In this document: positions 5,641 to 27,841 of the stretch, one piece after another
Position numbering within the stretch: the first letter of the stretch is position 1
How the letters are laid out: every line of letters begins with the position of its first letter
NCBI GenBank assembly: GCA_028279585.1
Contig: JANQNL010000039.1
Span: 4,132 to 68,131 of the forward strand
Direction of reading: 5' to 3'
Length of the DNA: 64,000 bases
Source of the DNA: Thermoplasmatota archaeon
GTDB lineage: Archaea; Thermoplasmatota; Penumbrarchaeia; JANQNL01
Program-made: the position numbers and the translations under genes
The notes under the pieces: generated by a model
Told to the model about the DNA's origin: nothing
The model's database searches: none
The model's input: the letters and a program-made list of their open reading frames with translations, nothing else

Positions 5641-5644
5641 TAAA

Positions 5645-6076
5645 ATGAGTGAATATCCCAAGGAGTTCATACGCGGCATTACAAGTCCCAATCATGTTGT
5701 TGCTCCGACATTAATAACCGCAGATGTATTCACTTTTCAACAGAATCATAAAAGGGAAGATGGTATCATTGAAGAATCAATTAATTGGAATGATGATGGT
5801 GATGCTATAGATTTTACCTTACAACAAAAGCGAGAAGACGAAAATTATCAATTCAGAGGTGGGGTTGCTGTTGTTCCAAAGGAAGATGTTGATCGATTAA
5901 TGCGAAAACCTATCACAGAAGATTGCCTCAATTATGAGCGGTTACCATTAAAGACGAACAAGTACCATGGAAATCTTTTATTGGATGATAAGATAAGTAA
6001 AAAAAGTAAACAATTACTCGTGACATCGCTCGTTGTTGCCGTTGAAAGAATTATACCTAATAGATACTGTGAATGA
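5645..6076 (+). CDS. Hypothetical protein (143 aa)
   Basis: ATG 4 nt after the previous stop; an alternative overlapping ATG lies at 5621. No motif recognised. Confidence 0.45.
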   Translation: MSEYPKEFIRGITSPNHVVAPTLITADVFTFQQNHKREDGIIEESINWNDDGDAIDFTLQQKREDENYQFRGGVAVVPKEDVDRLMRKPITEDCLNYERLPLKTNKYHGNLLLDDKISKKSKQLLVTSLVVAVERIIPNRYCE

Positions 6077-6285
6077 AAATTTAGGAATTGATCCCCCGTT
6101 TTCCGGTTCCTTACAATATTACTTGACGGCAGACCACCCCTCTGCCTACAACTCTTTACATCCACCACCAATTCCCACCCCTGGGAAGTTACATTTGTAC
6201 ACCATCGTTCCCACTTCCCCTCACCTTTCTATTGCGCAATCAAAGGTTAGAATGCAACGGGGGGATCGATCATTGTATTCATCAA

Positions 6286-8193: not shown

Positions 8194-8244
8194 AATATCA
8201 CCATCTTTTGTGAGTATATGGTTCTGATTATTCAACTTTCAACT

Positions 8245-8718
8245 TCATGAAACGCTAATTTCAATTTCATTCGAATGAACAGTTCCCTTCCAAGTATCAT
8301 ATCCATGGGATGGGGAGTATGTAAATGTGAATTTATAGATGCCAATGTCGAAATTATAGTATAGTTCAAAATCGATAATAACTTCCGTGTATTCATTTTG
8401 CTTCAATTCTATTAGGTCATCTTCAGTAACATAATAGTCGTGGAAATAATCATGAGGGATTTCCGTTCCATTATCATCAATAACAACGATCAATAGGTTT
8501 GAATAAGGCAAAATTGGTTCTACCGTAATCGATTCTCTACCGCGATTTGTTAGGCGTATTGTTATATTGAGATGATTATCTGTATGATCATAAATCGCAT
8601 TAGTATCAATACTTATCTCTAGCCCATCATCATTTTCAATACATCCTGAAAATAACGTTAATAATACTACAGTACACAGAGTGACAACGATTGCTTGTAT
8701 TTTTTGATTCACATACAT
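8245..8718 (-). CDS. Small secreted lipoprotein-like protein (157 aa)
   Basis: Signal peptide with lipobox-like 'LLTLFSGC', followed by a strand-rich sequence. The start overlaps the last 10 nt of the giant gene. Confidence 0.55.
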   Translation of the reverse strand: MYVNQKIQAIVVTLCTVVLLTLFSGCIENDDGLEISIDTNAIYDHTDNHLNITIRLTNRGRESITVEPILPYSNLLIVVIDDNGTEIPHDYFHDYYVTEDDLIELKQNEYTEVIIDFELYYNFDIGIYKFTFTYSPSHGYDTWKGTVHSNEIEISVS

Positions 8719-11700
8719 AGTTGAGCCCTCCCTGAAGCGCGTTTTAAATTACTATCATAGTTTAATGATAACCATAAGTGTGTCGATATCCATTCCCATT
8801 CATTAATGTTCTTATATTGAACTCCAGCGAGTGATGCGTTTCCAAATTGTGAATGGTTTGAATAAGTATTACAAGGATATAAACCTGTATACATACAAGA
8901 CCGTTGCTGGTATCCTATTTGTTTATTTCCATTATCAATCGGATGATCAAGATTGAAATTATGACCAAGTTCATGCATGAAGTCCATAGTGAATTCCTTA
9001 TCAGATGCTGATAATCCTTTCAAATATCCCATTGGTATCCAGAATTCAAATCCTCCATCTTCTCCATTAAAGGCGGGTTTTGCTCTACCTAATTCTTTGT
9101 CAGCTAATCGATGACAAAATACTGCATAATGGAACACATTGTCACGACCTTCAGTAAAGTGATGATACGAATAGAATGTCTCATCTGCATCACCGAAATT
9201 TCCAGGACTATCATCCCAATACACAGATCCACCACCTTCATTATTGACTCCTGTATAGGAAAATACATCCTTCCCCCAGTTCTCAGAACCGTCATCAATA
9301 TGCAATCCAATGTCATGCTCAAGAAATGCAATGTTTGAGTAATATTTAACGATTGAATTCATCTTATATGACGTTCTAAATGGATAATGATTCAAATATA
9401 AGTCATCATACCAGTCAATTTCTATTGCCACATCCTTCCGATTTGGATTCAGGCCATAATCTCTGAATTTATATTCATCGAGATTTGAGATTCCATCATT
9501 GTCGGGATCTCCAAATGACCCATGTTCTCCATCAGCCAATAGATTCGCATCATCAATTACAATATCTTTGCTTGTACCTGATTCCCAACCAGTCATGTAT
9601 AATCCATGTATACAATCGTAACCATCCGGGATTCCATCGCGGTCAGTATCGTTTGATCCAACTCCGATGATATCTGTTCCCCAGAAATCCCATTCCGCCT
9701 TTTGAGAGAGACCGTCCCAATCGCGATCGCCATAGTCATCAGGAGAATCAGGATCGCAAGGATATATTTCAAAATACAAGGTTGCCCACTGGTCATTATC
9801 TCCTCCATAGCCAGAGGTAACTCCTAATCCAGCATCATACCTGAAGTTGTCCTGAACAAACTTTTCATTGTAAACATAACATCCTTCATTTGGTAGTATA
9901 TATTGTTCATGCATTGCGGGATTGATATCACTCCACAATCCCGTTGCATGATCATAGTATATATTTAACTCAGATCCAGTTCCACCTGTAATATCTGCTT
10001 CATCATACACATCTGTCGAATCAGAATCCCATAATCTGATCTTGTATCCAGAATACTGTTCATTATGATCGAAACTAAAAGAAGCAACCAGAGAATTGTA
10101 CACACAATATTCATCAGATCTCCAACTAAGTTTTGATGTTTGTTCCTGTTCATCTATATCTATGACATATACATCCCAATCAGGAGCATCGACATCTCCT
10201 GCTTCAGTACCATAATTGTTTGAGCTCGCTTCAATAGCAAGAATTTTTACAGCTAGGTTGACCTCTTTCATCGCAGGATAATAATCCTCACTATCATCAA
10301 AGCCGTCACCATCAGTATCCCAATTATTCTTTTCTAGTCCCTGGTGATATTCTTCTGACTCGCTGACATTATCTTCATCTGAATCTGTTGAGGTTGGATC
10401 TGTTGCAAAATCACTCACATCGATATTATTCTGATTCCAGGTAGAGCTAGTAGTACTATCAAGGTTATCGACAACATATCTCGATTCCATTTCCCACATT
10501 GATGGTAGGCCATTGGTTGAGAAATAGCATCCCCAGCCTGAAATCGATTGAGTGTGACCTGTTTGAGTTTCATCATATCCCCAACCATCAATCCATCCAT
10601 CAGGGAGACCATCGTTATCAGAATCGACATCTAATGGATCTGTTTGGTCAAATACGATCTCGTTTCGGTCTTGCAGGTAATCTCCATCTGTATCGGAATC
10701 TGTTGGGTCAGTAAAATATGTGGTTGTTCCAGGCGCATCACCAATGACCTCGTCACCATCCTCAATCCCATCGGAGTCGGAATCATCATTCAATGCATCC
10801 GTTGGATCAAAACCATTGTGCTGAGATTTCTCTCCGTAGTATTTTATTGGACATGTGGAACTATTCTTATAGATTCCAAATTGATCGAAAAATTCAATTC
10901 TTGAATCACTTGGACTTGTGATATTTACATCATAGCCATCCAGTAAGCAATCTCTATCAGAGTCGGGCATAATTGGATTTGTACCAGATGTTAACAGTTC
11001 ATGGTAATCGGTGAGGCCGTCAAAGTCCGTATCGTCTGACTTGGGTGAAGTTCCATTTCCGAATTCTTGAGAATCATTCAACCCATCATCATCGGTGTCC
11101 ACATCGTTGAAATCTGAATAATCTACATCTGATTCGTATGAACCGTTTTGGTTTGAATCCTCAAGAATATTTAATAACCCATCTTGATCGGTATCCAAGC
11201 TTGATTGGACATTGTTCGGGTCTAATGCATTCACATAATCGAATAATTGCTCTGTTGATGAATTATCGAGTAATCCATCACCGTCAGAGTCCCGATCCAT
11301 ACCATTGCAGAGGCCATCGCCGTCGATATCACCCAGCCAGTACAATTTTCCTCCAGATAATATATCATTGCCATCATTTAATCCGTCTCCATCGGAATCA
11401 TAGACGTATGGCAATGTTTCCCACGCTTCGGTGTAGTATATATTGTCAGTTGTGTTGGTTCCACCGTACCATGCTCCTGCCCATCCATCCTTATCGGATG
11501 ACTCTTCACCATCATCCCTTCCATCATTATCCGAATCTGTATCTAGAGCATTTGGAATATCGTCATCGTCAGGATCAGCCCAAGTACCAGAGAGAGTAGA
11601 ATTTGCATAAGTCCTTGCGGCTCTATCGGGAGCAAGAATCGTTCTTGTGCCTTCATCGTTGAGATACCATTTTGGTGAGTCCATTCTGTAGAAATACTCC

Positions 11701-14700
11701 CCGCCGTCTTTAATCCCATCGTCATCAGTGTCAGAATTATTGAAATCTGTTTCTTCATCTTCGTCCCAAACACCATCTCCGTCCAAATCTTCGCCTTCCC
11801 ATGGATCTTTTACCCCATCAATCCTGTCTGAATCTACACGCCAATCATTAACATCGAATCTCCAATAACCATCAGTCCAAGCATCTGGGATGAAATCTCC
11901 ATCAGAATCGAAACTTCTAGGATTGATTCCACGAGAAAGTTCTTTCCAGTCATCCAAACCATCCTCATCTGTGTCGTTCGAGTTAGGGTTTGTGGAATTA
12001 TGATATTCGTCATAGTCTGTAATATTGTCTGAATCGGAGTCTGTGTTCATGGGATTTGAGTAGACAAAGTATCCTAGACTTTCGTTGATTCCACTTGTAG
12101 TAACCCTTGTGATATATCTCGTGAGATAGAAACCAAATGCTTCAATGTGGTCTGATAACGAGTCATCATCCGAATCCGTATCCGTAGCATTTGTAGACTC
12201 CAGATACCCACTCTGATTCGTTGTTGACGTTCTGTTTCTTGTACTATTCGAATTGTACAACTCTCCACAGAACCAAACATCGTTCGAGTCGACAATATCA
12301 AACCCATCCCACAGCCCATCCTCATCCGAGTCCTCATTCCACGGATTCGTCTCGTTCCACGTCTCATCCTCATCCATCACACCATCCAGGTCCGTGTCAC
12401 CCTCCAGTACGCCATCCCTATCCTCATCCTCACCCTCCCATGGATCAAATGAATCCGAGGTCTGACTAGCTGGCATGTCTGTACCCCTGGTGATCGACGA
12501 GTAGTCCACGAACCATTCTACCACGGGGTCCCATATCTTCCCATCAACCCAACCATCTGGCAAACCGTCGTTATCGCTATCAGCGTCACAGGTACCCTTC
12601 AACCCATCCCCGTCCCTGTCTGCGAGTCCAAAGACCTCCCATCCGTCCCAAACCCCGTCCCCATCCGCGTCCGCATCCACCATATTCTCATCCGTGTCCG
12701 GGTCTAAGCCCTGGCCGGTCTGGTCCTCATTCCAATCCGGCTCTGAACCATCATTGATACCATCATTGTCGGAGTCTGGATCATACACGTTACACGCAGG
12801 ATCATATCCCAGCTCGGACAACTCTCGACCAGACGTGTACGAGTCGTTATTCTTATCCCAGTACAGCTCATCATCGTCGTTGATTCCATCGTTGTCGGAG
12901 TCCCAGTGGCATGGATCGGAGAAGTAGAGTTGTTTGTTCCTCCAGTAGCCATTGTTATCCGATACGTTGTATGATGTCATATCGAGCGAGCCAGCGCTGG
13001 AATTGATGAACTCGTAGTACCAACCCGTCGAGTAGAGATCCGGTATGAGGATTGTATCATTTCCCGAGGTGTTGGACCAAAGATATATTGGTGAGCCATA
13101 GCCCAGGGTCAAAATCTGCTTTGAATCGTTTGGCAGACTATCCTTGTTTGCCACGTAAGAGTAATTCTTCGCGGAGAATGCTCCCGTCCAAGATGCGTCG
13201 TGGTCTCCGTCATAATGGATCCAATCGTTGGTGGTGACATCCTCATATGCGAGTGGGGATAAGGAGCCATTCACAACGTTCGTTCTGAAGATAATCTTTC
13301 GCGGCGTTGAAGTTGTGATCGTTCCCAGGACTCCGCAGACTTCTTCGCCATCATCGAGGTCATCGTATACATCACTGTTCTTGAGCTTAGGGTGGGTTCC
13401 AATGATGAATTCCTCGAGGTTGGTGAGACCGTCACCAGCGTTGGAGAAGTCGTTATAAACTATTGTGTATGACATGTTTGTGTAATGATAATCTGGACTC
13501 GGTGTGGTTGTCATGTATTGCCATCCTCCACCATAATCGTACATAGCAGTGTCTGATAAATTAAGAGGAGGTGGTGGTGGTGGTGCACCGGATCTATCAT
13601 TTTTATACCAAGTAAATGTTGCTTCATTATACCGTAATCCAATCCAAATCTCACCGTTCAATTCCTCTAGAACATCATATGTCAATATTTCATCTGGGAC
13701 TGCATAATAGAGCACGCTACCTTCATTTGTTGCATTGTCTGTTTTGTAGATCATATTGAATGGTCGATCTGAAGAATAAGCCTGATTGGTTCTTCCATCA
13801 CTCCATATCTCGAATACAGGGATTGAACCTCCATCTAGGTTCACAGGAAGTCTAAAGGCTGCAACCTGGAAGTATCCACCATCTGGGTGTGTTAGGTTTA
13901 CATATTGCATAATCACATTGTCAGGATTGGATACAACTTCAGGTTGCTGGCCATCGATTCCATTGGCCAAGTTGGTTTCCGTGGGTTCGTCAATGTCGTT
14001 GTTAGCATCTGAATTATCGTTAGGATTCAAGAGATAATTTCCAGTTTGGTCCTTGTATTCCTCCCTTGTAGCATACCAAACCTCCCAACCATCTGGCATC
14101 AGATCAGAGTCTGTATCATCTGCTTTGTTATCTGTCTCACCGTAACTTCCATCGAACTCCTTCGTAAGCGTATTGAAACCCCATCCTGATAGTGTAGCCG
14201 TATTACCATCACAGTTCAGGTCTTCTCCCTCATACACCTGCACGAGATTATCAGCTATGCCATAGTAACCCCATAGTCTCTCGTCATATCGGTATGAGAA
14301 CCGACCCATAGAGTCGATCTGTTTCGTTGCCATCGTTCTTACGACGAAACCATAATCATCAAGCGGTGAATCGAAATCATCGTTTGATTCCAGATAAGCA
14401 TTCGTTCTGTATGACCAACCATCCCTCCAACCGTCACAGAGACCATCATTGTCCGTGTCTGGGTTCAATGGGTCCGTTGTTGAGCTTGCGTTCGAATCGT
14501 AGTTGTTGATCGGTGTGTGATCGAACGGATCACCGTTATGGCAGATCCTCTCAGTCCACGAACCTGGTGATGTATCATCTCCTACAACTGAGGAATTATA
14601 TCCAAGCTCTACTCCATCCCTGATGCCATCGAAATCCGAATCGCGATAGCCTGGATCAGTTCCAAGCGTATCTATCTCTGTCTTGTCATCAATGCCATCA

Positions 14701-17700
14701 TCGTCAGGATCATCATTAAGCGGATACCATTCAAGGTAGGCCTCAATCGTATCGTTGATTTCATCGCCGTCAGTATCCCTGCACATCCCATCCAAACCAA
14801 CCCTAGTCATATGAGCTCTATCCAAGTCCATGATCTCGAGCGCGTAAACATGTTCGAAGTTCATGTCATCAGGAACTGATGAGTACTCGCCCATTGTTGT
14901 CTTCAGGTCTGGGTCCAGATGGTCCGGAAGCTTGTTCAGGTCCACACCGACCTTTATGTAGTACTCAATACCCTCAACCCATTCATATGTGCATGTGAAG
15001 GCGTATGAGACCTTTGCTGAAAGGTTCCTCGTGGCTTCCCAGTCATAAGGATCGTAGATCAATTCTGCTGCTTGCAGAGAGCAACTCTGGCTTGATGTTA
15101 GCGGTGTTCTAGTTGTTCCGGAGCTAGTACTGATCTCGACATAGGTGCAACTATCAGCAACAGCCTCAACATACCATTCCTCATCATCTGTAAGGTAGAT
15201 CGCCTGGTCCTCAAGCCGAACGGGTATTGGATTCCCTTCGTTGACGAGACGATATCCATAAATGTCGACCTCTGCTGTCTTGATCATGTCTGGACCATTT
15301 CTAGGTGAGATCTCAACGGAGTACGTCCCAGTGACAGGAGCTTCATACAGTAACGAAACATAAGAATCCTGGATGATCTCATTCCCAGAATCATACTCTT
15401 CATGAATAGAGGAGCGGATGTTCACACCAGTCTGATAGAAGTATGCACCAGCATCGAATCTGGTCTCGGTCTTTGCACTGTATTCATCAGATTCTTCAGT
15501 GTTCATGTAGTGACCCCACTCCTTGAACTCAACTGCATCTTCGAATTCGATGATATCACAGCCCCATGCTTCTAAGTACTCCTCACCATCATCCATGCCA
15601 TCGCCATCTGAGTCGATACAAAGTGGGTCTGTGCTATTATCCTTGTACATCCAGAACTCTTCGATGTCGAGTGTCTCTTCGCTAGTGGTGTAATGGAAAT
15701 CGGATTTGAAAAATAGCGGGACCTCTCTAGTGCCCAACGTATCATCTTCGTAGGCGTTCAGATATGCTGCGAAGTTGATTGATTTCTCAGCGCCTGTGAA
15801 GATTCCTGTGTGGTTCCATATCTCCAGATCGTCGATCTCAAGTGAGTACTGACGGAGAATTGATGATAGCTCATTGGTACCATCTTTGAACAAGCACTGG
15901 CCATTGTAGATCGTCAATGAGGTGGCTGAGGACGTAGATTGAGTTACGCTTACTTCGGTTCCATCAACAATATCTGTGACATTGATACTGGATCGACCAT
16001 TGTGACGATAGATGACCTTGCTACCCTCAATGTTTGGATGAGGGTCCATCGAAGATGATCCTATGGACGTGAGTGTCTGGTGCATGATATCATACACATA
16101 CGTACCATATGTGCTTCCATCGAGTCTACAGAACACTATCCTTCCATCATCGATCTCATGCCTGATGATCTTTTCATTATCGATGAAGGTCATCTCATGC
16201 ATATCAATACCTTCATCATCCTGCTCATCCTCTTCAATATCACCTGAGAAACTGTAGTATGAACCTTTCAGTTCAGATGTGGATTGGTTGGTGTCCTCGA
16301 CATATGTTACCAGATTGCACCATATTCGCGGATGGCCGAACTCACTTGCCGATGAAGCGACTGTGATATCCCAGCTCTCCTCGTCACCTTCTTTGTAGTT
16401 CGGAGTTCCATCACCATCGATATCACCGTTGAAATCATAGAATTTTATTGAGTACGATCCCTCTTGCCAGACAAGGTAATCACCATAGATATCTAAGTCA
16501 GATATCGATGTTGTAGATTCGAACAATAGTGTCGTTTCTCCTGTGGAGATCTGATAAAGGTTTAAACTGTATACAGTGCCAGATGTGACATACCCAATGT
16601 ATGCTATGAAATCTCCATGGATGGCTGCTTCCGTATTTGTCGTATCAGTATATCCTATAGTCAATGGATTACTAGTCATCTCATCAGTGATGTCATAAAG
16701 GTAGATGTCTGATGAATAGTCGTACACAACATAATTCTCATACGAATCGATCCGGTTGCCTATCGCGATATCAGTTGACACATTCTGAAGTGTGTGAACG
16801 GTCGGTGTCGCCTCGTCGAACTCGAAGTACGCGGACGAAACATAATCGTTCCAATCGAACTGGATCGAGATATCATCGTTCTCACCATCCGTATCGAACG
16901 TCAGGTCCTCATCCTCATCAACAACTCCATTGTTATAGAAGTCATCAGAGAACATGTCGTCCTGCTTTACGATCATGATCCTGTCCACATAAACCGTCCC
17001 CGCAGTCCTCTTGATCTGCAAGGTATACTCAGATTGGCTTGCCTGGAAGATCAAACGATCCCACTCTGGCTCGTAGTGTTCTGTGGGCTCGATATCGCTT
17101 GAGGTAAGCTCAGAGATGTTTGTCCAGATCTCATAAGCTGGGCTCCCTGTTCCCATGGCTCTTATCCATACCTCATAAGAATCTCCACTATCGAATGGAA
17201 TGCTCTCTATCTCTACGAACACAGTATCTGGGCTTTCCGCATAGATCATCTTTCCATTCTCGCAAGAGATGTTGGTAGTGATATCTGTGTGGCCGGTGTA
17301 TGGATAGTACTCTGCTTCGTACCAGAGCTGGGTGCTTGTGCTCTCAATGCCATCCATAACACCGTCAGAATCCGTGTCATAGAGATACGGTATCGAGTAT
17401 TGACCCATTTGAACGCTCGTTGGAGATGTTGGGTTTGCTCCATCCTCGTGAGATCTGATGAGCAGGATATCATCAACAGCAATAGCTTGGTTATCTGTGG
17501 AATCATAAGCAATTAGCTGGAGATAACCTGATAGCTCCTCGACTCTGAAGGGTTGTGTCTGGAACCACTTCCAATAGTCGTCCACAGGGAATGTCGTGTT
17601 CGCGCTTATCTCGGATGAATCAAGCAAAGCTCGGAGCTTTAGATCAGCTGTCGTGGATGTATTAATGAGCTTGGCTCGAACCATGAACTTGTAGTAACCG

Positions 17701-20700
17701 GTCTGGTTGATCGGGAACAGGTCGTCGAATATCGAATCGTCTGTGGATAACTGGACTGCTCCTCCACCATAGTACTTGCTTGAGTTAACAAAGTCAACAG
17801 CCTGGAACAGGTGGATCTCCTCGGTTGATTCGTTCGCGTCATCGAACCAGTCCCCATCGGAATCCCCGCCGAGCTTGACATTGAAGTTAGAGCTATCAAA
17901 GATCTGAGCGTAGAACTGATTATCATTACCGACAGTGAAGTTGTATGGTGTGCGGTATTCCCAAGAAACTGTAGCACCCTTAAACTCCTTTTCAGTCAGG
18001 TATGTCGTGAGAGAATCCGTACCATCACCTTCCGTGTGCATGATATCTGTTCTGTTTCCAGACTCATCAAATACCTGGAGATAATGATCTGTATCTCGGT
18101 TCGTTGCAAGGTAAGCTATCTGACCACTGTTCAAAGCCTCATCATATATGCGAACATCGTCAATAGCTCCCGAAAAATCCCCTGCCTTCTGATTATCTGG
18201 TCTGGAAATTCCAAAACTCAATGCTGATGTTCCGCTAGAGTCAACCGATCCGCCCCAATCGCCCCATGTATGTACTTTCTCACCATTCAGATAGACCTTG
18301 GTCTCTGCACTTGTATCGTCTTCATTATATGTCAAAGCCAGATGATACCATGTGTCGTCTTGTATCCCGATGTCTTGTGATAGTGTACCGTCCTTATCCG
18401 AGGTGTCAAAATACAGTTCGATGTTGGAACCTTCGGTGCCGAGCTCGAAGTTGTCATTGTCAGTTGAGGAACCCTGTGATATTAGCACATTATTGATGCT
18501 ATGGCCAGTGTCTCGACTCACTCCATCTCTATCAATATCTCTCCGGAACCACATTGCCATCGTGAAATGCTCTGGAGCGTCTAAGAAATCAATATCTCCT
18601 ACGTCCACCCAATCATCAACACCATCAAAGACAAAGCAATCACCTACCATGCCATTCTCAAGATCGTTCACTGGATGAAGTCCTTCGATCTCACCTGAGT
18701 TATCAGTGACGGAAGAATCATAGGTCATATATTTGGATTCGACCCAATGCATCTCATCGAACGTCCAATGATTCCTTGGGGTCGTATTATCCTGCCATTC
18801 TGGTTTGTCGTACGGTGAGACAGTCACATCCCAAACCTCTCCGATATGGGATGTTGCATCTATCTGGAATGCATCCTCCGAATAATCACAATCTAACAAA
18901 GAGACGAACGATCCGGAGACCGAATACACGTCGTTCCTATTTGCACCAGTGATGTCAGAGTTCTCGATCCTTGGTTCAGAGTTGTCTGAGTAGATCGAAT
19001 GGTTGTTTGTTGTGAAGGTACCAGAGATTACAGACACACTTCCGTTTTCCAATAATGTTCCATTATCGTTATCACCGAATGTTGTCGAGGAGATTGAAGA
19101 AGCATCACAGAAACCATGGAAGCCGATCGGATTGTCTGAAAGATTACAGCTTGCAACGTCTATGTAAGAGTACAATGATTTTACACCAGCGATATCGCAG
19201 GTAGAAGCTGTCACACCAGATATTGAACCAGTTGTGTTCAGGGTGACTACACCGTAATCACAATCGGTGACACTCATGGATGTAACATCAGCATCTGTCT
19301 CTCCCATGGAGATGCCGATATCGTTGTCCCTGATCGTACAGGATGATACTCCATCCGTATAGGTAACGTACAAACCGCTTACAGAGGCCATAACATCTCC
19401 AATTAGCTCAATAGAGACATTGATATAGATCGAAATCTCGGTTGTCGATAGAGATACCTCTGAACCCGTTGTCTCTTCGATCACTCCGCCAGATGCATTC
19501 TCAACCGCGAATGAGATGCTCGCAGTATCGGATTCTTCAGACAATAGGTATACTCCCTCATAATCCTCCCAGCTCGACCTGTTGATAGCTATTGTTCTGG
19601 CGTTCTCTTCATACATCTGTAATGATCCAGTACGATTTATAGAGGAGAACCTCACCTCGTCCAGGAATCCTTGATAATCATTATTGCCAGATGAACCGAG
19701 TTGGCCAATGTACCAATCCATACTTGATGGTTCATCTTGGGATGAATACATCGAAATTAAACTACCATTCACATAGAGGAAGTACGTGTAACCATCCCAC
19801 ACAATAGATACATGATACCAAACCTCTTTCTTCCAAAAGGTCTGGTATGTTGAGAGAATGAACTCATCATATTCACCAGAGAAGTTGAAGCTCAAAGCTC
19901 CATCATCGAACTCGTTGAGCTCGATGCTATAGCTCTCATCAGTAGAATACCCACCAACAAGAGTCATTATGCCGTCAGAATCATCTGTCCAGCTATCATC
20001 CAGTTTGAACCAGGTCTCGATGGTCCCTTTGTTACCGAGGTCCATCGTCCCAGCATTTACATAATCTCCATCACCATCGAAATATAACCCAGGTCCATAT
20101 CGTCCAGTCTCCCACAGAGCATTAGTTATGGATCCATTGCTTCCTGTTCCATGATTCTGAGCGGTCGTCCCTCCATCTCTGTCGAAATGGAATAGACCTA
20201 CCGTGTTTGTCGTATCGATGTATGGGCCCGAACAGTCATTGAAACGTCTTTCAACATTATAGATCTGGACATCATCCAATAAACCAGAATAGCAATTACC
20301 ATAGGTTCCTGGCCCAGGACGCCCGATGAAGTAATGATTGTTCTTAGCTACACCAGTTGTAGCGTCAAGCCGTTTGGTGTCCTTTAGATGTCCATCCACG
20401 TAGAGGTCCATTCTAAAGGCTTCACTTCCTGCAATACCATCATCTATGCACCAATGATAAGCTACGTGGAACCACCCTTCTTTGTTGGATATATCCGCAG
20501 TGAGAGATTCATATCCTGTTGAATGATGATAGAGTTCTGCCACGATGTTGCTGTTGTTGAGATACAATCTTCGATTCCTATTATTGGAACCATGGAAAAG
20601 GTACTGGGTCGAAGCTGAGTTATCATCTGGCAGAAGCCACATCTCGATGGTACCTTCTGCATCCGAATCCCGCATCGAAGATGAGTTCATATCGATCCAA

Positions 20701-23700
20701 ATGTAATCTCCAGTACCGTCTAGGTCCAGAGCTCCATTGAACAACCCTCCTGTTGTATCCCAAGAAGCTCCTGCAACGGTAGCTGTCGTGTATCCCGTTT
20801 CATCGGTTGCTGTTGTTCCAGAGCTCTGATCGAGATGTAGGTTCATTATCTGATTCTGTTCAACACTCCTGTTCTCGTGCAGGTATCTGGGGATGGTCAT
20901 ATCTTCTGTGCGATAGGACATCTTGACCTCGTCGATCGTGCCAATGAATGTCCATTGTGATAGTCCTCTCAAGGAACCAATGTATAGGTCATCATCAGTA
21001 TATTCTGAATCTATCAAAGATGAAACAGATGTCGAACTTTCAGCAACCATCCTTCCATCGACGAACAACCGCATATAGGAACCGTTGTAAGTTGCTGCGA
21101 CATGATACCATTGATCTGTAGATAGGATTCCAGCATCTGATATCAACATCTCTCTGGTCGTTCCATCGGATATTGAGAGCTTCAAATAACCTCCATTGTA
21201 GGTTGTAAGTAAGAATTGACCATCAGGGCTAGAATACCACTTTGAGATAATGGTATTCCCTCCGCTACTACCATCTCCAGAAAAGGTTGTTGGATAGATC
21301 CAAGCTTCAACCGTTAATTGTGTCAACGGATCAAGATCATCGTGGTCTGACACCGAGATGTAATCCCCACTGGAGAATTCTTGAGCTGAACCATACACGC
21401 CAGTGACCCAAGATGTGCCAGATGCTGTTCCATCATGGCCATCCCAAGCTTCACTGATGGATGTTCCAGTGTTCTCATCCATATGATAGACACAAACTGG
21501 GTTGTCACTTGTGGCGTGTGAGTACGTCCTCTTGGTACTCATCACGTCGTTGACGACACTGATCCCCGTTGTATTGGTAGCGATATCTCCTGATGATGAA
21601 AAAGCAACTGCTTCGTAGTTACATGGAGCGTAGGTGATGAAAAAGTCCTCAAGGTAGACGCCTTCGCTATTGTTCTCAAGGTCGAATCGAAGAATAATCG
21701 AAGAATGAGTAAAATGATCCAATGAACTGAGATCGATCTTTGAGCTCGAAAGGTCTTGATAACCAGAGATAGGATTTGAATTATCATCGAGCAAGGAAAC
21801 CTTCACCAAGGAGAGATTGTTCTCAGTCTTGGATAGAATTAGTTCCCCCCACTTACTATTGTCAGGTAAGGAAATCGGATCAGTAATGGCGTAACCACTT
21901 GTTGCTCGATCATCAAGGAACTCATCCTTATCTAATAATATCCAATCCCAGTAGGACTTTGTACTGCCTGTGCATGAATTTGCTTTTGGCCCGAACTGCA
22001 TAGCTCCGTCTCCTCCGCCCCAACCGTAGAAGCTCCCAGAGAAGGTCGTAACTAACTCTCCATCAATGAATAACTTAGTAATTTCAGTCGTTGTGTTGGT
22101 ACATAAGCGAATCAGGTGGAATTCACTGTCAGCGGTAGAGAGTTCCGTGTCACAGGTCTCGAATGTAGAACCTGTCTTTAAGTGGCTCACGCGGCCTTCT
22201 TTGAAGAATACATTAACCATCTTTTGTCCATTCTTCATAGACCAGGAGGCGCCCATATTATTTCCACCATCGGTCTTGTCTGGAAGTTCGTCAGATTTCA
22301 GCAAGAACTCTGCTGTCATCTGTTTATCGATCACTTCAGGATCGTATGTATTGACAAGGTGATTTCCTGAAGCAGCATACCCAACAAACTGCCCATATGG
22401 AGCTCCCTGGGCGAAATCGTAGATATACTTGTTCGCAGCATTTGAAGCACTTGGACTCCATTCTTCGTGATCATCACAGTCCTCATTGAGATAAGAACCA
22501 TCAACTGGAACAAGTCCTAATTGTAGCTTGCCATCGCTGATAACTAAGCCAGACATCATATCGAACAGGTCATAACTCATGTTCTGGTGCCATGAGTTGT
22601 TCTCAAATCTGATCCCAATGACATTGTTCTCGATGATACACGATTCGATGGTTGGGGCTGTTGCCCTACCGATCACGATACCTTCGTCGGTGTTATTATG
22701 TATCCAGCATGTTTCGATACCAGGACAGCTTTCATAGACCAATATACCCGATGAGGAGGAGTTCTGGATAGTCGAGTAATACACATAGACATCATCGGAA
22801 GATACATTGAGGCCATGGCCATCTTGACCGTGGTCTCTGATCAATGATGTGTTGATACACCCCTGTGAACCATGTTCATAAACGAATGAATAGGGAAGAC
22901 TTTCATTGAAAGCCATGACCGTTGTTGAATTGTAGATACCAAATTCTCCACCACTCTGTACTTTGATCTTATATGTATCCGTGGTAGTAGAGTTCATCAA
23001 GAGGGTGCATTTGTCGAGGATTAGTAATCCCCCATCAGCGATAGTGAGGTTTGAATTCTGGACGATAGTTTCATTCCTGTAATAGAGGGAGGTCGTGACT
23101 GGGGAGGAGATCGGGTCGATGTGGAGCGGAAGATACTTCCTATCTATGCGGTCGTTTGGAACTTCAATGGTCATTGTTTCCTCTGAGAATCCCAACATCG
23201 CAAAGCCTGATCTTGGTGAAAAATCATGTATAAGAGATTCCTGAGAATTGAAATTATCAGAACCATCGTACATCACAGGTTCCTTCAGCAAAATAGTGTC
23301 AGAACCACGATTCAATCCATTACCGCTGAATGTCGAATCGGAAGGATACCTGATATTGGCTGAGATAACATAGTCCTTATCGCCAGCAGAGAAGTCTCTG
23401 ATAATATAATCGTCTTTGAAGCCGAATAATCCCACTTCACCAATGAGGTCTATTCCAGGGTAAATGTCTGTTATTATGAATTTATTTCCTGCAACCTCAA
23501 TAGAACCGTTTGGCTCATGAACGTTGCAGGTTAGATAGTAAGTTGTATTGATTTCGGTTCTTACCTTTTTCGTACCGTTCAAATCACCAGTGTCATTCTC
23601 ATCACACTGGACGGTGGTGAACAATTCCTCATAATTGACAACGACAGAGGTCGTTTCTAATGTTGAGAGGTACAGGTCATAGTGTAAAGTACCATTGGTA

Positions 23701-23981
23701 AATCTGTACAATGGCCCTATAATATCTGTGTTCAACTTAACAGAGAAACCATTTCCTTTTGCTTCATATTCAAAGGTCTCATCTTCGATCTCATGAAAGT
23801 TCGTATCGAGAAATATCGTTCCTGGTGGGAATGAATAGATTTCCTTGAATACAGGTCCTTCAGTTCCAATCTCTTTCTCTTCAGCCTTAACGAACATCGA
23901 GAGATGGTTCACTCCGACGGTCATTAAAACTACGATAAACAAGCAGCAAGCAACGTGGCTCAACTTCAGCGTTCTAAACAT
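8709..23981 (-). CDS. Giant secreted multi-domain surface protein (about 5,090 aa) with C-terminal metzincin-type metalloprotease motif
   Basis: Uninterrupted frame. The ATG at 23981 gives 'MFRTLKLSHVACCLFIVVLMTVGVNHLSMFVKA' (signal/anchor); the 71 codons upstream look non-coding. The domain order read from the translation is given in the sub-features below. A propeller-like repeat block lies at about 15850-16780, and CBM-like modules at about 15000-15600 and 17000-18000. Confidence 0.85.
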   Translation of the reverse strand: MFRTLKLSHVACCLFIVVLMTVGVNHLSMFVKAEEKEIGTEGPVFKEIYSFPPGTIFLDTNFHEIEDETFEYEAKGNGFSVKLNTDIIGPLYRFTNGTLHYDLYLSTLETTSVVVNYEELFTTVQCDENDTGDLNGTKKVRTEINTTYYLTCNVHEPNGSIEVAGNKFIITDIYPGIDLIGEVGLFGFKDDYIIRDFSAGDKDYVISANIRYPSDSTFSGNGLNRGSDTILLKEPVMYDGSDNFNSQESLIHDFSPRSGFAMLGFSEETMTIEVPNDRIDRKYLPLHIDPISSPVTTSLYYRNETIVQNSNLTIADGGLLILDKCTLLMNSTTTDTYKIKVQSGGEFGIYNSTTVMAFNESLPYSFVYEHGSQGCINTSLIRDHGQDGHGLNVSSDDVYVYYSTIQNSSSSGILVYESCPGIETCWIHNNTDEGIVIGRATAPTIESCIIENNVIGIRFENNSWHQNMSYDLFDMMSGLVISDGKLQLGLVPVDGSYLNEDCDDHEEWSPSASNAANKYIYDFAQGAPYGQFVGYAASGNHLVNTYDPEVIDKQMTAEFLLKSDELPDKTDGGNNMGASWSMKNGQKMVNVFFKEGRVSHLKTGSTFETCDTELSTADSEFHLIRLCTNTTTEITKLFIDGELVTTFSGSFYGWGGGDGAMQFGPKANSCTGSTKSYWDWILLDKDEFLDDRATSGYAITDPISLPDNSKWGELILSKTENNLSLVKVSLLDDNSNPISGYQDLSSSKIDLSSLDHFTHSSIILRFDLENNSEGVYLEDFFITYAPCNYEAVAFSSSGDIATNTTGISVVNDVMSTKRTYSHATSDNPVCVYHMDENTGTSISEAWDGHDGTASGTSWVTGVYGSAQEFSSGDYISVSDHDDLDPLTQLTVEAWIYPTTFSGDGSSGGNTIISKWYSSPDGQFLLTTYNGGYLKLSISDGTTREMLISDAGILSTDQWYHVAATYNGSYMRLFVDGRMVAESSTSVSSLIDSEYTDDDLYIGSLRGLSQWTFIGTIDEVKMSYRTEDMTIPRYLHENRSVEQNQIMNLHLDQSSGTTATDETGYTTATVAGASWDTTGGLFNGALDLDGTGDYIWIDMNSSSMRDSDAEGTIEMWLLPDDNSASTQYLFHGSNNRNRRLYLNNSNIVAELYHHSTGYESLTADISNKEGWFHVAYHWCIDDGIAGSEAFRMDLYVDGHLKDTKRLDATTGVAKNNHYFIGRPGPGTYGNCYSGLLDDVQIYNVERRFNDCSGPYIDTTNTVGLFHFDRDGGTTAQNHGTGSNGSITNALWETGRYGPGLYFDGDGDYVNAGTMDLGNKGTIETWFKLDDSWTDDSDGIMTLVGGYSTDESYSIELNEFDDGALSFNFSGEYDEFILSTYQTFWKKEVWYHVSIVWDGYTYFLYVNGSLISMYSSQDEPSSMDWYIGQLGSSGNNDYQGFLDEVRFSSINRTGSLQMYEENARTIAINRSSWEDYEGVYLLSEESDTASISFAVENASGGVIEETTGSEVSLSTTEISIYINVSIELIGDVMASVSGLYVTYTDGVSSCTIRDNDIGISMGETDADVTSMSVTDCDYGVVTLNTTGSISGVTASTCDIAGVKSLYSYIDVASCNLSDNPIGFHGFCDASSISSTTFGDNDNGTLLENGSVSVISGTFTTNNHSIYSDNSEPRIENSDITGANRNDVYSVSGSFVSLLDCDYSEDAFQIDATSHIGEVWDVTVSPYDKPEWQDNTTPRNHWTFDEMHWVESKYMTYDSSVTDNSGEIEGLHPVNDLENGMVGDCFVFDGVDDWVDVGDIDFLDAPEHFTMAMWFRRDIDRDGVSRDTGHSINNVLISQGSSTDNDNFELGTEGSNIELYFDTSDKDGTLSQDIGIQDDTWYHLALTYNEDDTSAETKVYLNGEKVHTWGDWGGSVDSSGTSALSFGISRPDNQKAGDFSGAIDDVRIYDEALNSGQIAYLATNRDTDHYLQVFDESGNRTDIMHTEGDGTDSLTTYLTEKEFKGATVSWEYRTPYNFTVGNDNQFYAQIFDSSNFNVKLGGDSDGDWFDDANESTEEIHLFQAVDFVNSSKYYGGGAVQLSTDDSIFDDLFPINQTGYYKFMVRAKLINTSTTADLKLRALLDSSEISANTTFPVDDYWKWFQTQPFRVEELSGYLQLIAYDSTDNQAIAVDDILLIRSHEDGANPTSPTSVQMGQYSIPYLYDTDSDGVMDGIESTSTQLWYEAEYYPYTGHTDITTNISCENGKMIYAESPDTVFVEIESIPFDSGDSYEVWIRAMGTGSPAYEIWTNISELTSSDIEPTEHYEPEWDRLIFQASQSEYTLQIKRTAGTVYVDRIMIVKQDDMFSDDFYNNGVVDEDEDLTFDTDGENDDISIQFDWNDYVSSAYFEFDEATPTVHTLQNVSTDIAIGNRIDSYENYVVYDYSSDIYLYDITDEMTSNPLTIGYTDTTNTEAAIHGDFIAYIGYVTSGTVYSLNLYQISTGETTLLFESTTSISDLDIYGDYLVWQEGSYSIKFYDFNGDIDGDGTPNYKEGDEESWDITVASSASEFGHPRIWCNLVTYVEDTNQSTSELKGSYYSFSGDIEEDEQDDEGIDMHEMTFIDNEKIIRHEIDDGRIVFCRLDGSTYGTYVYDIMHQTLTSIGSSSMDPHPNIEGSKVIYRHNGRSSINVTDIVDGTEVSVTQSTSSATSLTIYNGQCLFKDGTNELSSILRQYSLEIDDLEIWNHTGIFTGAEKSINFAAYLNAYEDDTLGTREVPLFFKSDFHYTTSEETLDIEEFWMYKDNSTDPLCIDSDGDGMDDGEEYLEAWGCDIIEFEDAVEFKEWGHYMNTEESDEYSAKTETRFDAGAYFYQTGVNIRSSIHEEYDSGNEIIQDSYVSLLYEAPVTGTYSVEISPRNGPDMIKTAEVDIYGYRLVNEGNPIPVRLEDQAIYLTDDEEWYVEAVADSCTYVEISTSSGTTRTPLTSSQSCSLQAAELIYDPYDWEATRNLSAKVSYAFTCTYEWVEGIEYYIKVGVDLNKLPDHLDPDLKTTMGEYSSVPDDMNFEHVYALEIMDLDRAHMTRVGLDGMCRDTDGDEINDTIEAYLEWYPLNDDPDDDGIDDKTEIDTLGTDPGYRDSDFDGIRDGVELGYNSSVVGDDTSPGSWTERICHNGDPFDHTPINNYDSNASSTTDPLNPDTDNDGLCDGWRDGWSYRTNAYLESNDDFDSPLDDYGFVVRTMATKQIDSMGRFSYRYDERLWGYYGIADNLVQVYEGEDLNCDGNTATLSGWGFNTLTKEFDGSYGETDNKADDTDSDLMPDGWEVWYATREEYKDQTGNYLLNPNDNSDANNDIDEPTETNLANGIDGQQPEVVSNPDNVIMQYVNLTHPDGGYFQVAAFRLPVNLDGGSIPVFEIWSDGRTNQAYSSDRPFNMIYKTDNATNEGSVLYYAVPDEILTYDVLEELNGEIWIGLRYNEATFTWYKNDRSGAPPPPPPLNLSDTAMYDYGGGWQYMTTTPSPDYHYTNMSYTIVYNDFSNAGDGLTNLEEFIIGTHPKLKNSDVYDDLDDGEEVCGVLGTITTSTPRKIIFRTNVVNGSLSPLAYEDVTTNDWIHYDGDHDASWTGAFSAKNYSYVANKDSLPNDSKQILTLGYGSPIYLWSNTSGNDTILIPDLYSTGWYYEFINSSAGSLDMTSYNVSDNNGYWRNKQLYFSDPCHWDSDNDGINDDDELYWDKNNDSYTSGRELSELGYDPACNVYDPDSDNDGINDGSEPDWNEDQTGQGLDPDTDENMVDADADGDGVWDGWEVFGLADRDGDGLKGTCDADSDNDGLPDGWVDGKIWDPVVEWFVDYSSITRGTDMPASQTSDSFDPWEGEDEDRDGVLEGDTDLDGVMDEDETWNETNPWNEDSDEDGLWDGFDIVDSNDVWFCGELYNSNSTRNRTSTTNQSGYLESTNATDTDSDDDSLSDHIEAFGFYLTRYITRVTTSGINESLGYFVYSNPMNTDSDSDNITDYDEYHNSTNPNSNDTDEDGLDDWKELSRGINPRSFDSDGDFIPDAWTDGYWRFDVNDWRVDSDRIDGVKDPWEGEDLDGDGVWDEDEETDFNNSDTDDDGIKDGGEYFYRMDSPKWYLNDEGTRTILAPDRAARTYANSTLSGTWADPDDDDIPNALDTDSDNDGRDDGEESSDKDGWAGAWYGGTNTTDNIYYTEAWETLPYVYDSDGDGLNDGNDILSGGKLYWLGDIDGDGLCNGMDRDSDGDGLLDNSSTEQLFDYVNALDPNNVQSSLDTDQDGLLNILEDSNQNGSYESDVDYSDFNDVDTDDDGLNDSQEFGNGTSPKSDDTDFDGLTDYHELLTSGTNPIMPDSDRDCLLDGYDVNITSPSDSRIEFFDQFGIYKNSSTCPIKYYGEKSQHNGFDPTDALNDDSDSDGIEDGDEVIGDAPGTTTYFTDPTDSDTDGDYLQDRNEIVFDQTDPLDVDSDNDGLPDGWIDGWGYDETQTGHTQSISGWGCYFSTNGLPSMWEMESRYVVDNLDSTTSSTWNQNNIDVSDFATDPTSTDSDEDNVSESEEYHQGLEKNNWDTDGDGFDDSEDYYPAMKEVNLAVKILAIEASSNNYGTEAGDVDAPDWDVYVIDIDEQEQTSKLSWRSDEYCVYNSLVASFSFDHNEQYSGYKIRLWDSDSTDVYDEADITGGTGSELNIYYDHATGLWSDINPAMHEQYILPNEGCYVYNEKFVQDNFRYDAGLGVTSGYGGDNDQWATLYFEIYPCDPDSPDDYGDRDWDGLSQKAEWDFWGTDIIGVGSNDTDRDGIPDGYDCIHGLYMTGWESGTSKDIVIDDANLLADGEHGSFGDPDNDGISNLDEYKFRDYGLNPNRKDVAIEIDWYDDLYLNHYPFRTSYKMNSIVKYYSNIAFLEHDIGLHIDDGSENWGKDVFSYTGVNNEGGGSVYWDDSPGNFGDADETFYSYHHFTEGRDNVFHYAVFCHRLADKELGRAKPAFNGEDGGFEFWIPMGYLKGLSASDKEFTMDFMHELGHNFNLDHPIDNGNKQIGYQQRSCMYTGLYPCNTYSNHSQFGNASLAGVQYKNINEWEWISTHLWLSLNYDSNLKRASGRAQLCM
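8943..8975 (-). other. Metzincin zinc-binding motif HELGHNFNLDH, followed by Met-turn-like 'SCMYT'
   Basis: Reverse complement of 8943-8975 reads CAT GAA CTT GGT CAT AAT TTC AAT CTT GAT CAT. 'RSCMYTG' lies 17 residues later. This is an HExxHxxGxxH pattern with N in place of G. Confidence 0.65.
9480..14800 (-). repeat. Array of thrombospondin-type-3-like calcium-binding repeats (DxDxDGxxDxxE) within the giant gene
   Basis: Dozens of units such as 'DSDNDGINDGSE', 'DTDNDGLCDGW', 'DSDFDGIRDGVE', 'DTDRDGIPDGYD' and 'DPDNDGISNLDE'. Confidence 0.8.
18100..21500 (-). other. LamG / concanavalin-A-like lectin modules (at least 4), interrupted by a second beta-helix-like segment (about 18850-19350)
   Basis: Repeated pattern of '..G.A..FDG.DDY(V/I)..', then 'WYH(V/L)A..', then '..LYVDG..' or '..(Y/L)(V/L)NG..', ending in '(I/L)D(E/D)V(K/R/Q)(M/I/F)(S/Y)'. 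Examples are 'TIDEVKMSY', 'LLDDVQIYN', 'FLDEVRFSS' and 'AIDDVRIYD'. Confidence 0.6.
22570..23090 (-). other. Right-handed parallel beta-helix-like repeats
   Basis: 'SGILVYESCPGIETCWIHNNTDEGIVIGRATAPTIESCIIENNVIGIRFENN' shows the PbH1-type repeat (I..N...GI.). Confidence 0.55.
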
Positions 23982-25954: not shown

Positions 25955-26116
25955 ATTTGCACTTTTTTTCTAAAAAACAAGATTCCAGTGTCTTTATTCA
26001 ATACTGAATTTGGGTAACACTTATATGGAGGAGGTCCGATTGAAGCCGTCCCTTCATTGATCTCAACTTTGACGGTGGATAACAAAGTTGAAGCCAGTCA
26101 ATTTTGAGAGACGCCA

Positions 26117-26149
26117 GATTTTGATCCGCAATACGACCATATCAAAATC
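26117..26149. promoter_or_regulatory. Inverted repeat GATTTTGAT-N15-ATCAAAATC upstream of glnA
   Basis: Perfect 9-bp arms, 33-65 nt before the glnA ATG. The same ATTTTGAT/ATCAAAAT half-site recurs in the hairpin at the glnA stop codon. Confidence 0.35.
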
Positions 26150-26181
26150 AGGCTGGATGGGAAGGTAGGGACGTGGTATTT

Positions 26182-27609: not shown

Positions 27610-27638
27610 TGGCAATTGCCGGATCAAAATACTGATAG
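27588..27638. terminator. 16-bp perfect hairpin spanning the glnA stop codon
   Basis: CTATCAGTATTTTGAT (27588-27603) pairs with ATCAAAATACTGATAG (27623-27638). The 19-nt spacer contains its own palindrome GGCAATTGCC. The stop codon TGA is at 27607-27609. Confidence 0.5.
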
Positions 27639-27841
27639 GCCAGCCGTATCGCGTTAGTAGGCTATACCGAAGATACGGTAGGGTCTCGCAGTTTCCGAAA
27701 CATTACTAGCAATACGAGGAAACTGTCGAGGTCATTCCAATTATCCACTCACCAACCGCATCTTCTCTATATATTTGGTATGAGTCATGCACAGTACCTT
27801 AATTACCCCAAACCACATTTCCCCCAACGGGGGGAGTACCA

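Follow-up and report, generated by a model that had tools for sequence, protein, structure and literature searches.

What does an archaeal gene of 15.3 kb encode, and what could such a product be for? This question is raised by the locus considered here, a stretch of 64,000 nucleotides from a Thermoplasmatota archaeon (GenBank assembly GCA_028279585.1, contig JANQNL010000039.1, positions 4,132 to 68,131; hereafter, the window), in which a minus-strand gene for a protein of 5,090 amino acids (the giant) is directly followed by a small lipoprotein gene. Few gene products of uncultivated archaea are as poorly understood as giant surface proteins, which probably decide adhesion and feeding or attack. 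In our favored reading, to which we assign a probability of about 0.5, the giant would be a surface-tethered or released protein that combines binding modules with a protease, and the lipoprotein would be the cognate inhibitor of the latter, by analogy with known protease–inhibitor pairs. An earlier account of the same DNA, made without database searches (the sequence-only reading), had proposed that the giant binds glycans or particles and also proteolyses; this function is plausible, judging by the predicted domains.

Three features of the locus are new, namely, an uncatalogued, mostly archaeal zinc-peptidase-like family, always with a preceding TSP3 repeat; a conserved protease–lipoprotein gene pair that may be an archaeal protease–inhibitor or toxin–immunity module; and a giant gene that is a clear compositional mosaic inside a defense-type island, showing how such genes may be assembled and exchanged.

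Reality and integrity of the giant gene

The minus-strand open reading frame (ORF) extends without interruption from 24194 to 8709 and contains 5,161 codons when counted from its first ATG. In this longer ORF, Met72 has its ATG at coordinate 23981, and the coding sequence starting there (8709-23981, minus strand, 15.3 kb) yields 5,090 amino acids plus the stop. Since the signal-like sequence MFRTLKLSHVACCLFIVVLMTVGVNHLSMFVKA directly follows Met72, a G-rich Shine–Dalgarno-like AGGGGGG is situated 10-17 nt 5' of it, and the public gene call P0010 is exactly 5,090 amino acids long, Met72 (23981) is the supported start; residues of the giant are counted from it throughout, and all features placed within the gene are on the minus strand. 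Given the base composition of the strand, a stop-free run of 5,090 codons has a chance of ~1e-139, and the other two frames of the minus strand contain 198 and 511 stops. The claim of the sequence-only reading that this is a single uninterrupted gene for about 5,090 amino acids is thus upheld, as are its coordinates; the minus strand, the low-GC island with its defense context, the compositional mosaic, and the coupled lipoprotein gene were missing from that account.

An ORF of this size could also be an assembly artifact, that is, a chimeric join of at least two genes from different genomes, e.g., at the sharp shift in GC content of third codon positions (GC3) seen at codons ~3900-4012 within the repeat-rich region, or a collapsed repeat. 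Tandem Repeats Finder reports nothing notable in the gene, the longest dispersed DNA repeats are 22-37 nt with 63-86% identity, and the internal protein repeats are only 22-55% identical; with repeats this short and dissimilar, neither collapse nor a mis-join within the gene has a substrate. In a separate Logan assembly of run SRR20820740, a 9,561-nt contig is 100% identical to window positions 638-10198; it spans the 3'-terminal 495 codons, the genes downstream, and the left island–host junction, which is thereby independently assembled; the end of this contig inside the gene, at 10198, counts on the side of an artifact. A second contig of the same run matches window positions 25699-28412.

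The comparison with related metagenome-assembled genomes, suggested by the sequence-only reading as a check, yielded two partial homologues from other samples, both collinear with the giant. P0004, labelled “LamG-like..., partial [Methanosarcinaceae archaeon],” is collinear with aa 1537-2592 (48% identity, 2% gaps), and its 3,161-nt contig, JBTNEV010000058.1 of assembly GCA_054799425.1, is one open frame from end to end. P0172, labelled “partial [Thermoprotei archaeon]” and cut by the end of its contig, Ga0180301_10015166 of JGI 3300014911, aligns with aa 3745-4585 at 36% identity (E 5e-93) and with aa 4733-5009 at 29%, catalytic domain included, and spans the GC3 change point of the giant gene without a break. 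As P0172 is contiguous across the change point, we read the GC3 shift as a natural mosaic rather than a mis-join. With the frame open through all 5,090 codons, we hold an artifact to be highly improbable; as far as can be judged from the sequence, the giant gene is one real, intact gene of an uncultivated archaeon, with a product predicted to be exported. An 859-aa ORF upstream on the contig of another relative, P0003, was considered as a part of a split giant and rejected, having no similarity to the giant or to P0172.

No close relatives of the giant were found among GTDB species representatives or in JGI metagenomes, an alignment-based metagenome scan retrieved solely unrelated LamG matches with 24-29% identity, and the protein forms a singleton cluster among ~15 billion proteins. 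A word-indexed protein search with aa 2085-2345 missed even P0004, which matches there at ~48%, and hence negatives of this search are weak. The earlier statement that the domain combination fits no described family is borne out, as there is neither a Pfam or NCBIfam model for the C-terminal domain nor a close relative.

The C-terminal HExxH domain and its family

The protease-type part of the favored reading is formed by the C-terminal domain, aa 4847-5090 (8712-9443), a zincin of metzincin-like type belonging to an uncatalogued family. It carries the zinc-binding-type motif HELGHNFNLDH (aa 5003-5013, 8943-8975), followed within 20 residues by PIDN and SCMY, the latter a candidate Met-turn, so that the motif and SCMY together span aa 5003-5032. 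Relative to the pattern HExxHxxGxxH/D, the giant has N where the pattern has G, and keeps the third H. In an alignment of 19 family sequences, only H, E, G (+3), and H of the extended motif are invariant; the glycine and the third H/D are not conserved across the family, and the aspartate of a conserved G-x-D-N may be the third ligand instead. The Met-turn region has the family consensus Y-x-S-C-M-N-Y, and reads R-S-C-M-Y-T in the giant. Thus, of the metzincin motif that had been read at the extreme C-terminus, HELGHNFNLDH and SCMY are indeed there, and conservation of the extended motif within the family of the giant is not.

A word-indexed search with the domain gave three weak relatives only, and the family was recovered by an exhaustive profile search. 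Its features are a TSP3 repeat directly upstream with invariant aspartates, I-E-V-D, H-I-D-D-G, F-x-Y, and F-M-H-E-L-G-H, to which the main group adds G-x-D-N, S-C-M-N-Y, and D-Y-S-D-G. Among the best 150 matches, the catalytic part is confined to proteins of 250-1,186 aa and the giant, no other protein of at least 2,000 aa with this domain being present among them. All Pfam matches of the family are below threshold (Reprolysin_5, 22.6 bits vs. 27; Peptidase_M66, 19.8 vs. 20.6; Reprolysin_4, 17.3 vs. 22), NCBIfam yields nothing for the domain of the giant and archmetzin at only E=0.18 in P0072, and a single-sequence PDB search with the domain produced nothing meaningful.

When the family profile is compared with PDB sequences, 27 out of 29 rows are metzincins, with myroilysin the best (E 1.3e-4) and snake-venom metalloproteinases, ADAM8, and ADAMTS-5 among further matches; the other rows are two antibody chains, whose matches lie outside the catalytic region. 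Similarly, the AlphaFold model of the domain of the relative P0002 (predicted local distance difference test score, pLDDT, 81.3; predicted template modeling score, pTM, 0.84) retrieved metzincin-type metallopeptidases in 14 of its 17 top Foldseek matches against PDB, namely, PAPP-A, archaemetzincins, profragilysin-3, and adamalysins (snake-venom metalloproteinases), with probabilities up to 0.94, but with E >= 4.8e-3 and template modeling (TM) scores of 0.26-0.43. These models and profiles point to a remote, uncatalogued, largely archaeal metzincin-like zincin family, for which catalysis is plausible.

The small relatives also place the architecture of the giant. P0002 (558 aa) consists of a membrane helix, a domain, TSP3 repeats, and the catalytic domain, and P0055 (815 aa; its 90% cluster includes a member labelled Thermoplasmata), of a NosD-type beta-helix, TSP3, and the catalytic domain. 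By predicted domain content, the giant is an extreme expansion of this module order, and the carriers of the catalytic module differ in length, from 275 and 334 aa to at least 1,268 aa and 5,090 aa.

In several relatives (P0001, P0003, P0148/P0172), the pattern H-C-x4-C-x-M ... Y-C-x2-C-W is found downstream of HELGH (columns ~320-390 of alignment A4). This pattern resembles the Cys4 zinc-ribbon known from archaemetzincins; in the giant, most of the cysteines concerned have been lost (SCMY...YPC).

Binding-type modules in the N-terminal half

The giant starts with a signal peptide or signal-anchor, MFRTLKLSHVACCLFIVVLMTVGVNHLSMFVKA (aa 1-33, 23883-23981), its sole hydrophobic segment: 19-residue windows with mean Kyte–Doolittle hydropathy above 1.5 start at aa 1-15 only, over the whole protein, in agreement with the signal/anchor read previously at this end. 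The protein is very acidic (D+E 18.8%, K+R 5.1%, pI ~4) and contains 89 N-x-S/T sequons, compared with 55.9 +/- 6.1 in shuffled sequences; this excess fits a glycosylated archaeal surface protein.

The best supported binding-type modules are a beta-helix and four LamG modules, both expected from the sequence-only reading. After a region without relatives (aa 34-294, 23100-23882; no Pfam match at E<=5, no PDB sequence match at E<=10), aa 325-469 (22575-23009) form a right-handed parallel beta-helix of NosD-like type, where both Pfam Beta_helix (PF13229; 32.7 bits vs. the cut-off of 25.9) and NosD (PF05048; 23.9 vs. 23.6) exceed their gathering scores, with weak matches to TIGR03804/03805. Further on, Laminin_G_3 (PF13385) is found in four stretches with 83 bits (E 3.2e-23) and 157.6 bits (E 3.3e-46), relative to the cut-off of 27.6, corresponding to three tandem LamG_3 modules of the ConA-like jelly-roll type (aa 829-1040, 1045-1250, and 1261-1450; 19632-21497), with internal similarity of 22-33%, and a fourth module (aa 1735-1956; 18114-18779), whose best stretch covers the full profile 1-151 and which is kept in P0004. 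A possible fifth, divergent ConA/LamG-like module at aa 543-648 (22038-22355) is weak: alignment of aa 475-825 to the profile of the four LamG modules with hhalign gives P=0.004 over 103 columns, and Pfam Sial-lect-inser, only E=0.098. The separate ConA-like region proposed earlier can thus be retained in a tentative form.

Other assignments made by eye fared less well. The Asp/Asn/Ser-rich segment aa 1548-1720 (18822-19340), kept in P0004, resembles beta-helix coils visually, and had been taken for a second beta-helix; it has no Pfam match at E<=5, and hhalign against the first beta-helix gives P=0.052, so that statistical support is lacking. The presumed CBM6/35-like part consists of two ~122-aa modules (IHLFQAVDF...VDDILLIRS and LWYEAEYY...VYVDRIMIVKQ; aa 2056-2340, 16962-17816) with one TSP3 motif between them. 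Pfam gave no match to CBM_6, CBM_35, or any other model at E<=5 at aa 2090-2350, and PDB, no sequence match at E<=10; the modules are 48% conserved in P0004, the only homologue found, and align collinearly to each other over 80 columns at P=0.096. The name CBM6/35 is accordingly unsupported by profile, PDB sequence, and homologue searches.

Seven ~40-aa repeats at aa 2405-2712 (15846-16769) are propeller-blade-like. Leave-one-out hidden Markov models recover five of the seven at p 1e-7 to 1e-4, two being marginal, and this supports the periodicity of the propeller-like block described before; its fold is weakly supported, as TIGR04275 beta_prop_Msarc (E=0.064) stays short of its cut-off, and Pfam has no match. 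The half closes with another region without relatives (DIIEFEDAVEF..., aa 2809-3060, 14802-15557), with no Pfam or PDB match. In ten unassigned segments, Pfam at E<=5 detected nothing beyond the LamG tail and two matches at E ~0.1, and single-sequence PDB searches with aa 34-810 and aa 1905-3070 yielded nothing meaningful.

The calcium-motif region

Between the binding-type half and the catalytic domain lies an Asp-rich TSP3-type region (aa 3067-4840, 9462-14783) with DxDxDGxxDxxE motifs and non-repeat inserts. The motif DxDxD[GN]xxD occurs 22 times in aa 3061-4845, with 0.26 occurrences expected and a maximum of three in 1,000 shuffles. Since inserts are present at ~aa 3200-3690 (with a PPPPPP run) and aa 4574-4745, the region is not a uniform 5-kb stalk; the repeats noted in the sequence-only reading are real, and their continuity over about 5 kb is not. 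Partial NCBIfam matches to CglD (E 2.5e-17, 3.5e-12) and MtsD cover the repeats only. Pfam TSP3_bac and TSP_3 give nothing in the giant at E<=0.01; TSP3_bac is found in two out of 19 relatives and is faint in P0172, with which aa 3745-4585 of the region are collinear. With the N-terminal helix as the anchor, the TSP3 region would be distal and not cell-proximal. A visual impression that aa 4574-4745 resemble the N-domain of P0002 was supported neither by BLASTP nor by hhalign.

As most of the mass of the giant consists of binding and spacer modules (LamG, beta-helix, TSP3), it could alternatively be a structural adhesin or envelope protein, in which the HExxH domain is dead or only processes the giant itself, and the lipoprotein serves as an anchor or an assembly factor. 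Self-cleavage has a precedent, since peptidase domains of other giant proteins have been proposed to cut their own polypeptide (bioRxiv 10.1101/2023.11.21.568195), and a membrane lipoprotein could tether the distal C-terminus to the cell. The catalytic domain of the giant is also divergent in its family, with the last 80 residues not alignable to P0172 and a poor structural model. On the other hand, the H, E, and H of HExxH are intact, a candidate third ligand and a candidate Met-turn are present, and there are short membrane-anchored proteins that carry this domain by itself, with nothing large to process. On balance, a purely structural role is on the unlikely side, and we retain a binder with a protease as the preferred reading.

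The coupled lipoprotein gene

The gene following the giant (8245-8718, minus strand) encodes a 157-aa lipoprotein comprising a signal with an LFSGC lipobox and then a beta-rich domain, and its start overlaps the stop of the giant by 10 nt. The protein has a weak match to the Ig-like Big_14 (E=0.053), and a PDB sequence search with it gave nothing meaningful. The same arrangement is seen in other members of the divergent protease subgroup: small lipoprotein genes follow P0172 (12-nt gap; CCGC/IKNDN), P0003 (12-nt gap; LTSGC/IMQNEED), and P0001 (7-nt overlap; LFSGC/LDSNNDN), and thus, in four out of four loci of the subgroup, including the giant, a lipoprotein gene overlaps the protease gene or starts at most 12 nt downstream. 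The loci of the relatives are L028 (ENA ERZ27241917 k141_191816, 2586-3895), L029/L030, and L027 (3819-4343).

Two of these relatives are short (P0003, 334 aa; P0001, 275 aa) and P0172 is a long fragment, each directly followed by its lipoprotein gene. As all three are so paired, the protease and the lipoprotein form a compact two-gene cassette that does not depend on the giant carrier.

The inhibitor role proposed for the lipoprotein is suggested by analogy with serralysins and their small inhibitors: the serralysin AprA is co-encoded with a small inhibitor (AprI/Inh), thought to protect the producer (PMC4070987). In both cases, a metzincin-type or metzincin-like domain is combined with calcium-type Asp/Gly-rich repeats and an adjoining gene for a small exported protein. 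The details differ, as in serralysin the catalytic domain is followed by RTX nonapeptide repeats and secretion is of type I, whereas the giant has TSP3 N-terminal to the domain, an N-terminal signal, and a lipoprotein partner; there is no sequence similarity between them.

The low-GC island and the mosaic structure of the gene

Both genes reside in a low-GC island (4100-24200), together with those for an OLD-family nuclease, two hypothetical proteins, and a TIGR04255-family protein. The GC content of the island is 0.35-0.47, compared with 0.51-0.56 in most of the flanks, and GC3 is 0.62-0.76 in host genes, 0.27-0.34 in the five genes downstream of the giant, and 0.44 in the giant. Of the genes at 4262-8235 (GC3 0.28-0.34), that at 4262-5101 belongs to the TIGR04255 family (E 1.4e-41), those at 5098-5640 and 5621-6076 are hypothetical, and that at 6286-8235 encodes a 649-aa OLD-family ATPase–TOPRIM nuclease, with Old, AriA, and GajA as the best PADLOC models; no partner helicase or AriB was identified beside it. 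The neighborhood looks like a defense island. Window scans found no tRNA, integrase, or Rfam element at the island borders.

The giant gene itself is compositionally heterogeneous, with a change point at 11945-12281 (codons ~3900-4012). Upstream of it, GC3 is 0.475 (0.57-0.68 just before), and downstream, 0.31, with a log-likelihood ratio of 48.7 relative to the permutation maximum of 8.9; the last 1,100-1,200 codons share their composition with the five downstream island genes. This suggests that the C-terminal TSP3–protease part and the downstream genes are of another origin than the first 3,900 codons. The giant gene is thus situated in a compositionally foreign island and is itself a mosaic.

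The host is, by sequence comparison, an archaeon of a very poorly sampled lineage. Its ELP3 is 52% identical to the best match among GTDB species representatives, found in archaeal metagenome-assembled genomes, and synteny via ELP3 leads only to distant archaeal loci (41-52%) and one bacterial match (30%); two of these loci were inspected, and neither has a giant gene upstream. Of ten host proteins looked up, seven are present in the protein collection of ~15 billion, and all seven, glutamine synthetase and ELP3 among them, are singletons at 90% identity (e.g., genes 24302-25954, 26182-27609, and 59913-63572).

The island context brings in a further explanation, a weapon of the polymorphic-toxin type, in which lectin-type modules would recognize a competitor or prey, the metallopeptidase would be the payload, and the lipoprotein, the immunity protein. 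An enzymatic domain at the extreme C-terminus, a small exported-protein gene translationally coupled behind it through the 10-nt overlap, retention of the partner position in all four subgroup loci while mature sequences diverge as those of immunity proteins do, and one catalytic module on carriers of very different length all conform to such a system, as does the location in a low-GC variable island beside OLD-family and other conflict genes, the change point suggesting joint arrival of the C-terminal part and the downstream genes. Polymorphic toxins whose toxin domain is a zincin metallopeptidase have been described, and such systems occur in a few archaea (PMC3482391); however, the Tox-MPTase families are small Wss1-like zincins (PMC3482391), unlike the domain of the giant. 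Pfam detected no RHS or filamentous-hemagglutinin repeats, pre-toxin domain, or releasing-peptidase domain in the giant, and there are no orphan toxin–immunity cassettes downstream, where the next gene is the OLD nuclease, followed by hypotheticals. Members of the main group, moreover, reside among ribosomal and housekeeping genes without a partner, like ordinary extracellular enzymes. We therefore regard a toxin as an unlikely explanation. A wider hypothesis, in our opinion decidedly unlikely at present, is that the gene pair founds an archaeal contact-dependent attack system: a calcium-stiffened, lectin-studded filament would carry a metzincin-like toxin or lytic protease of a new class at its tip, the lipoprotein would be an immunity factor or inhibitor, and the cassette would move with defense islands on carriers of 275 to more than 5,000 aa.

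Comparison with known systems

The closest functional analogues of the giant are SPEARE proteins and giant proteins of the TSP3/Dockerin type. SPEARE proteins of Nanohaloarchaeota are giant (3,300-8,500 aa), mostly extracellular, combine at least one LamG and adhesion modules with a protease, and have been proposed to attach to and attack another cell (PMC6642349). The giant is likewise an archaeal extracellular protein, by prediction, with LamG and a protease-type domain. The protease of SPEARE proteins is of the serine type, their transmembrane helix is located close to the C-terminus, and they contain a conserved type III restriction-enzyme region that is cytoplasmic (PMC6642349), whereas in the giant the protease-type domain is a C-terminal HExxH zincin and the only hydrophobic segment is N-terminal; no restriction, toxin-BC, or serine protease domain was found in it by Pfam and NCBIfam, and no homology was detected.

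Proteins of 2,000-6,500 aa with TSP3 number in the thousands in bacteria and archaea, and some of them contain LamG. “Dockerin-type” giant proteins of Omnitrophota (bioRxiv 10.1101/2023.11.21.568195) have long DxDxDG TSP3 runs, as the giant does, but Dockerin and EF-hand modules were not detected in the latter. The extracellular adhesion proteins CglD/MtsD of Myxococcus have TSP3 repeats in common with the giant, and the match covers the repeats only (62 bits vs. the family cut-off of 400). Halomucin of Haloquadratum walsbyi, as cited in PMC6642349, is likewise an acidic, sugar-binding, extracellular protein of giant size (~9,000 aa); it differs in being mucin-like and protective and in lacking a terminal protease.

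With respect to the catalytic domain, archaemetzincins (M54), pappalysins (M43; PAPP-A, mirolysin), and adamalysins (M12B) share with the family an HExxH helix and, as a candidate, a Met-containing turn, and the HCxxxxCxM...CxxC-like pattern of archaemetzincins is found in the subgroup relatives P0001, P0003, and P0148. The family differs from metzincins in its obligatory preceding TSP3 repeat, unusual for them, in remaining below every Pfam and NCBIfam threshold, and in the remoteness of the fold similarity.

Taking all this into account, the giant is best described as belonging with the known giant multidomain surface proteins of archaea and bacteria and not as a new kind of system; it is distinguished by the uncatalogued metzincin-like terminal domain, the conserved lipoprotein partner, and the mosaic origin in a defense-type island. 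The architecture itself will be little surprise to a specialist, and the cassette and the zincin family are the concrete, testable part.

Proposed function

In the favored reading, the giant would be exported and N-glycosylated, and either tethered by its N-terminal helix or released after signal cleavage. The LamG and beta-helix modules would attach it to targets rich in glycans, for instance particles, polymers, or other cells, and calcium would stiffen the TSP3 region into an extended spacer. The terminal HExxH domain would then cleave proteins at the bound target, the simplest purpose being nutrition or surface remodeling, and the coupled lipoprotein would stay on the membrane of the producer, where, as the cognate partner, it would most likely inhibit the protease domain and so protect the producer itself.

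Several observations weigh against this scheme and explain why we do not place it higher. Contiguity of window positions 10199-23981 rests on one assembly and the collinear homologues. About 40% of the protein (aa 34-294, 475-825, 1960-2400, 2809-3060, 3200-3690, and 4574-4745) is without a detectable relative, and hence unrecognized activities may dominate. The +6 position of the metzincin motif varies in the family (K, W, E, H, and others), so that the label “metzincin” is based on remote fold similarity and weak profile matches; the fold evidence, remote as it is, comes from a relative, P0002, with 29% identity to the giant, and the AlphaFold model of the C-terminal 290 aa of the giant itself has a pLDDT of 51.6, its Foldseek result being noise. 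Finally, the mature parts of the four lipoproteins have weak sequence similarity or none, and the main-group relatives P0002 and P0157, situated among ribosomal and housekeeping genes, have no lipoprotein neighbor, which makes the inhibitor role an analogy. Should the function prove to be ordinary extracellular protein degradation, the giant would be an incremental addition to the archaeal extracellular peptidase repertoire.

Other genes of the window

Outside the island, the gene at 32549-33817 (minus strand) is an isolated low-GC3 gene (0.35) among neighbors with GC3 of 0.65-0.75; its product has a GmrSD_N-like N-terminus, with PDC-M55C (E 4e-24) and HEC-05 as PADLOC candidates, and is probably a separately acquired defense nuclease. 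For each of two tandem paralogues at 27842-31949 (700 and 666 aa), only DUF4139 matches, weakly and below threshold, and the second is preceded by a perfect Shine–Dalgarno sequence, GAGGTGAT. The 930-aa product of 34750-37542 (minus strand; GC3 0.65, host-like) contains 26% Asp+Glu and 4.3% Lys+Arg (pI 4.05), has no Pfam or PADLOC match, and may be another acidic extracellular protein. The 755-aa, very acidic protein encoded at 53271-55538 (minus strand; pI 4.05, host-like composition) combines a PQQ/BamB-type beta-propeller with an Ig-like Big_5 domain and is probably a surface protein, too.

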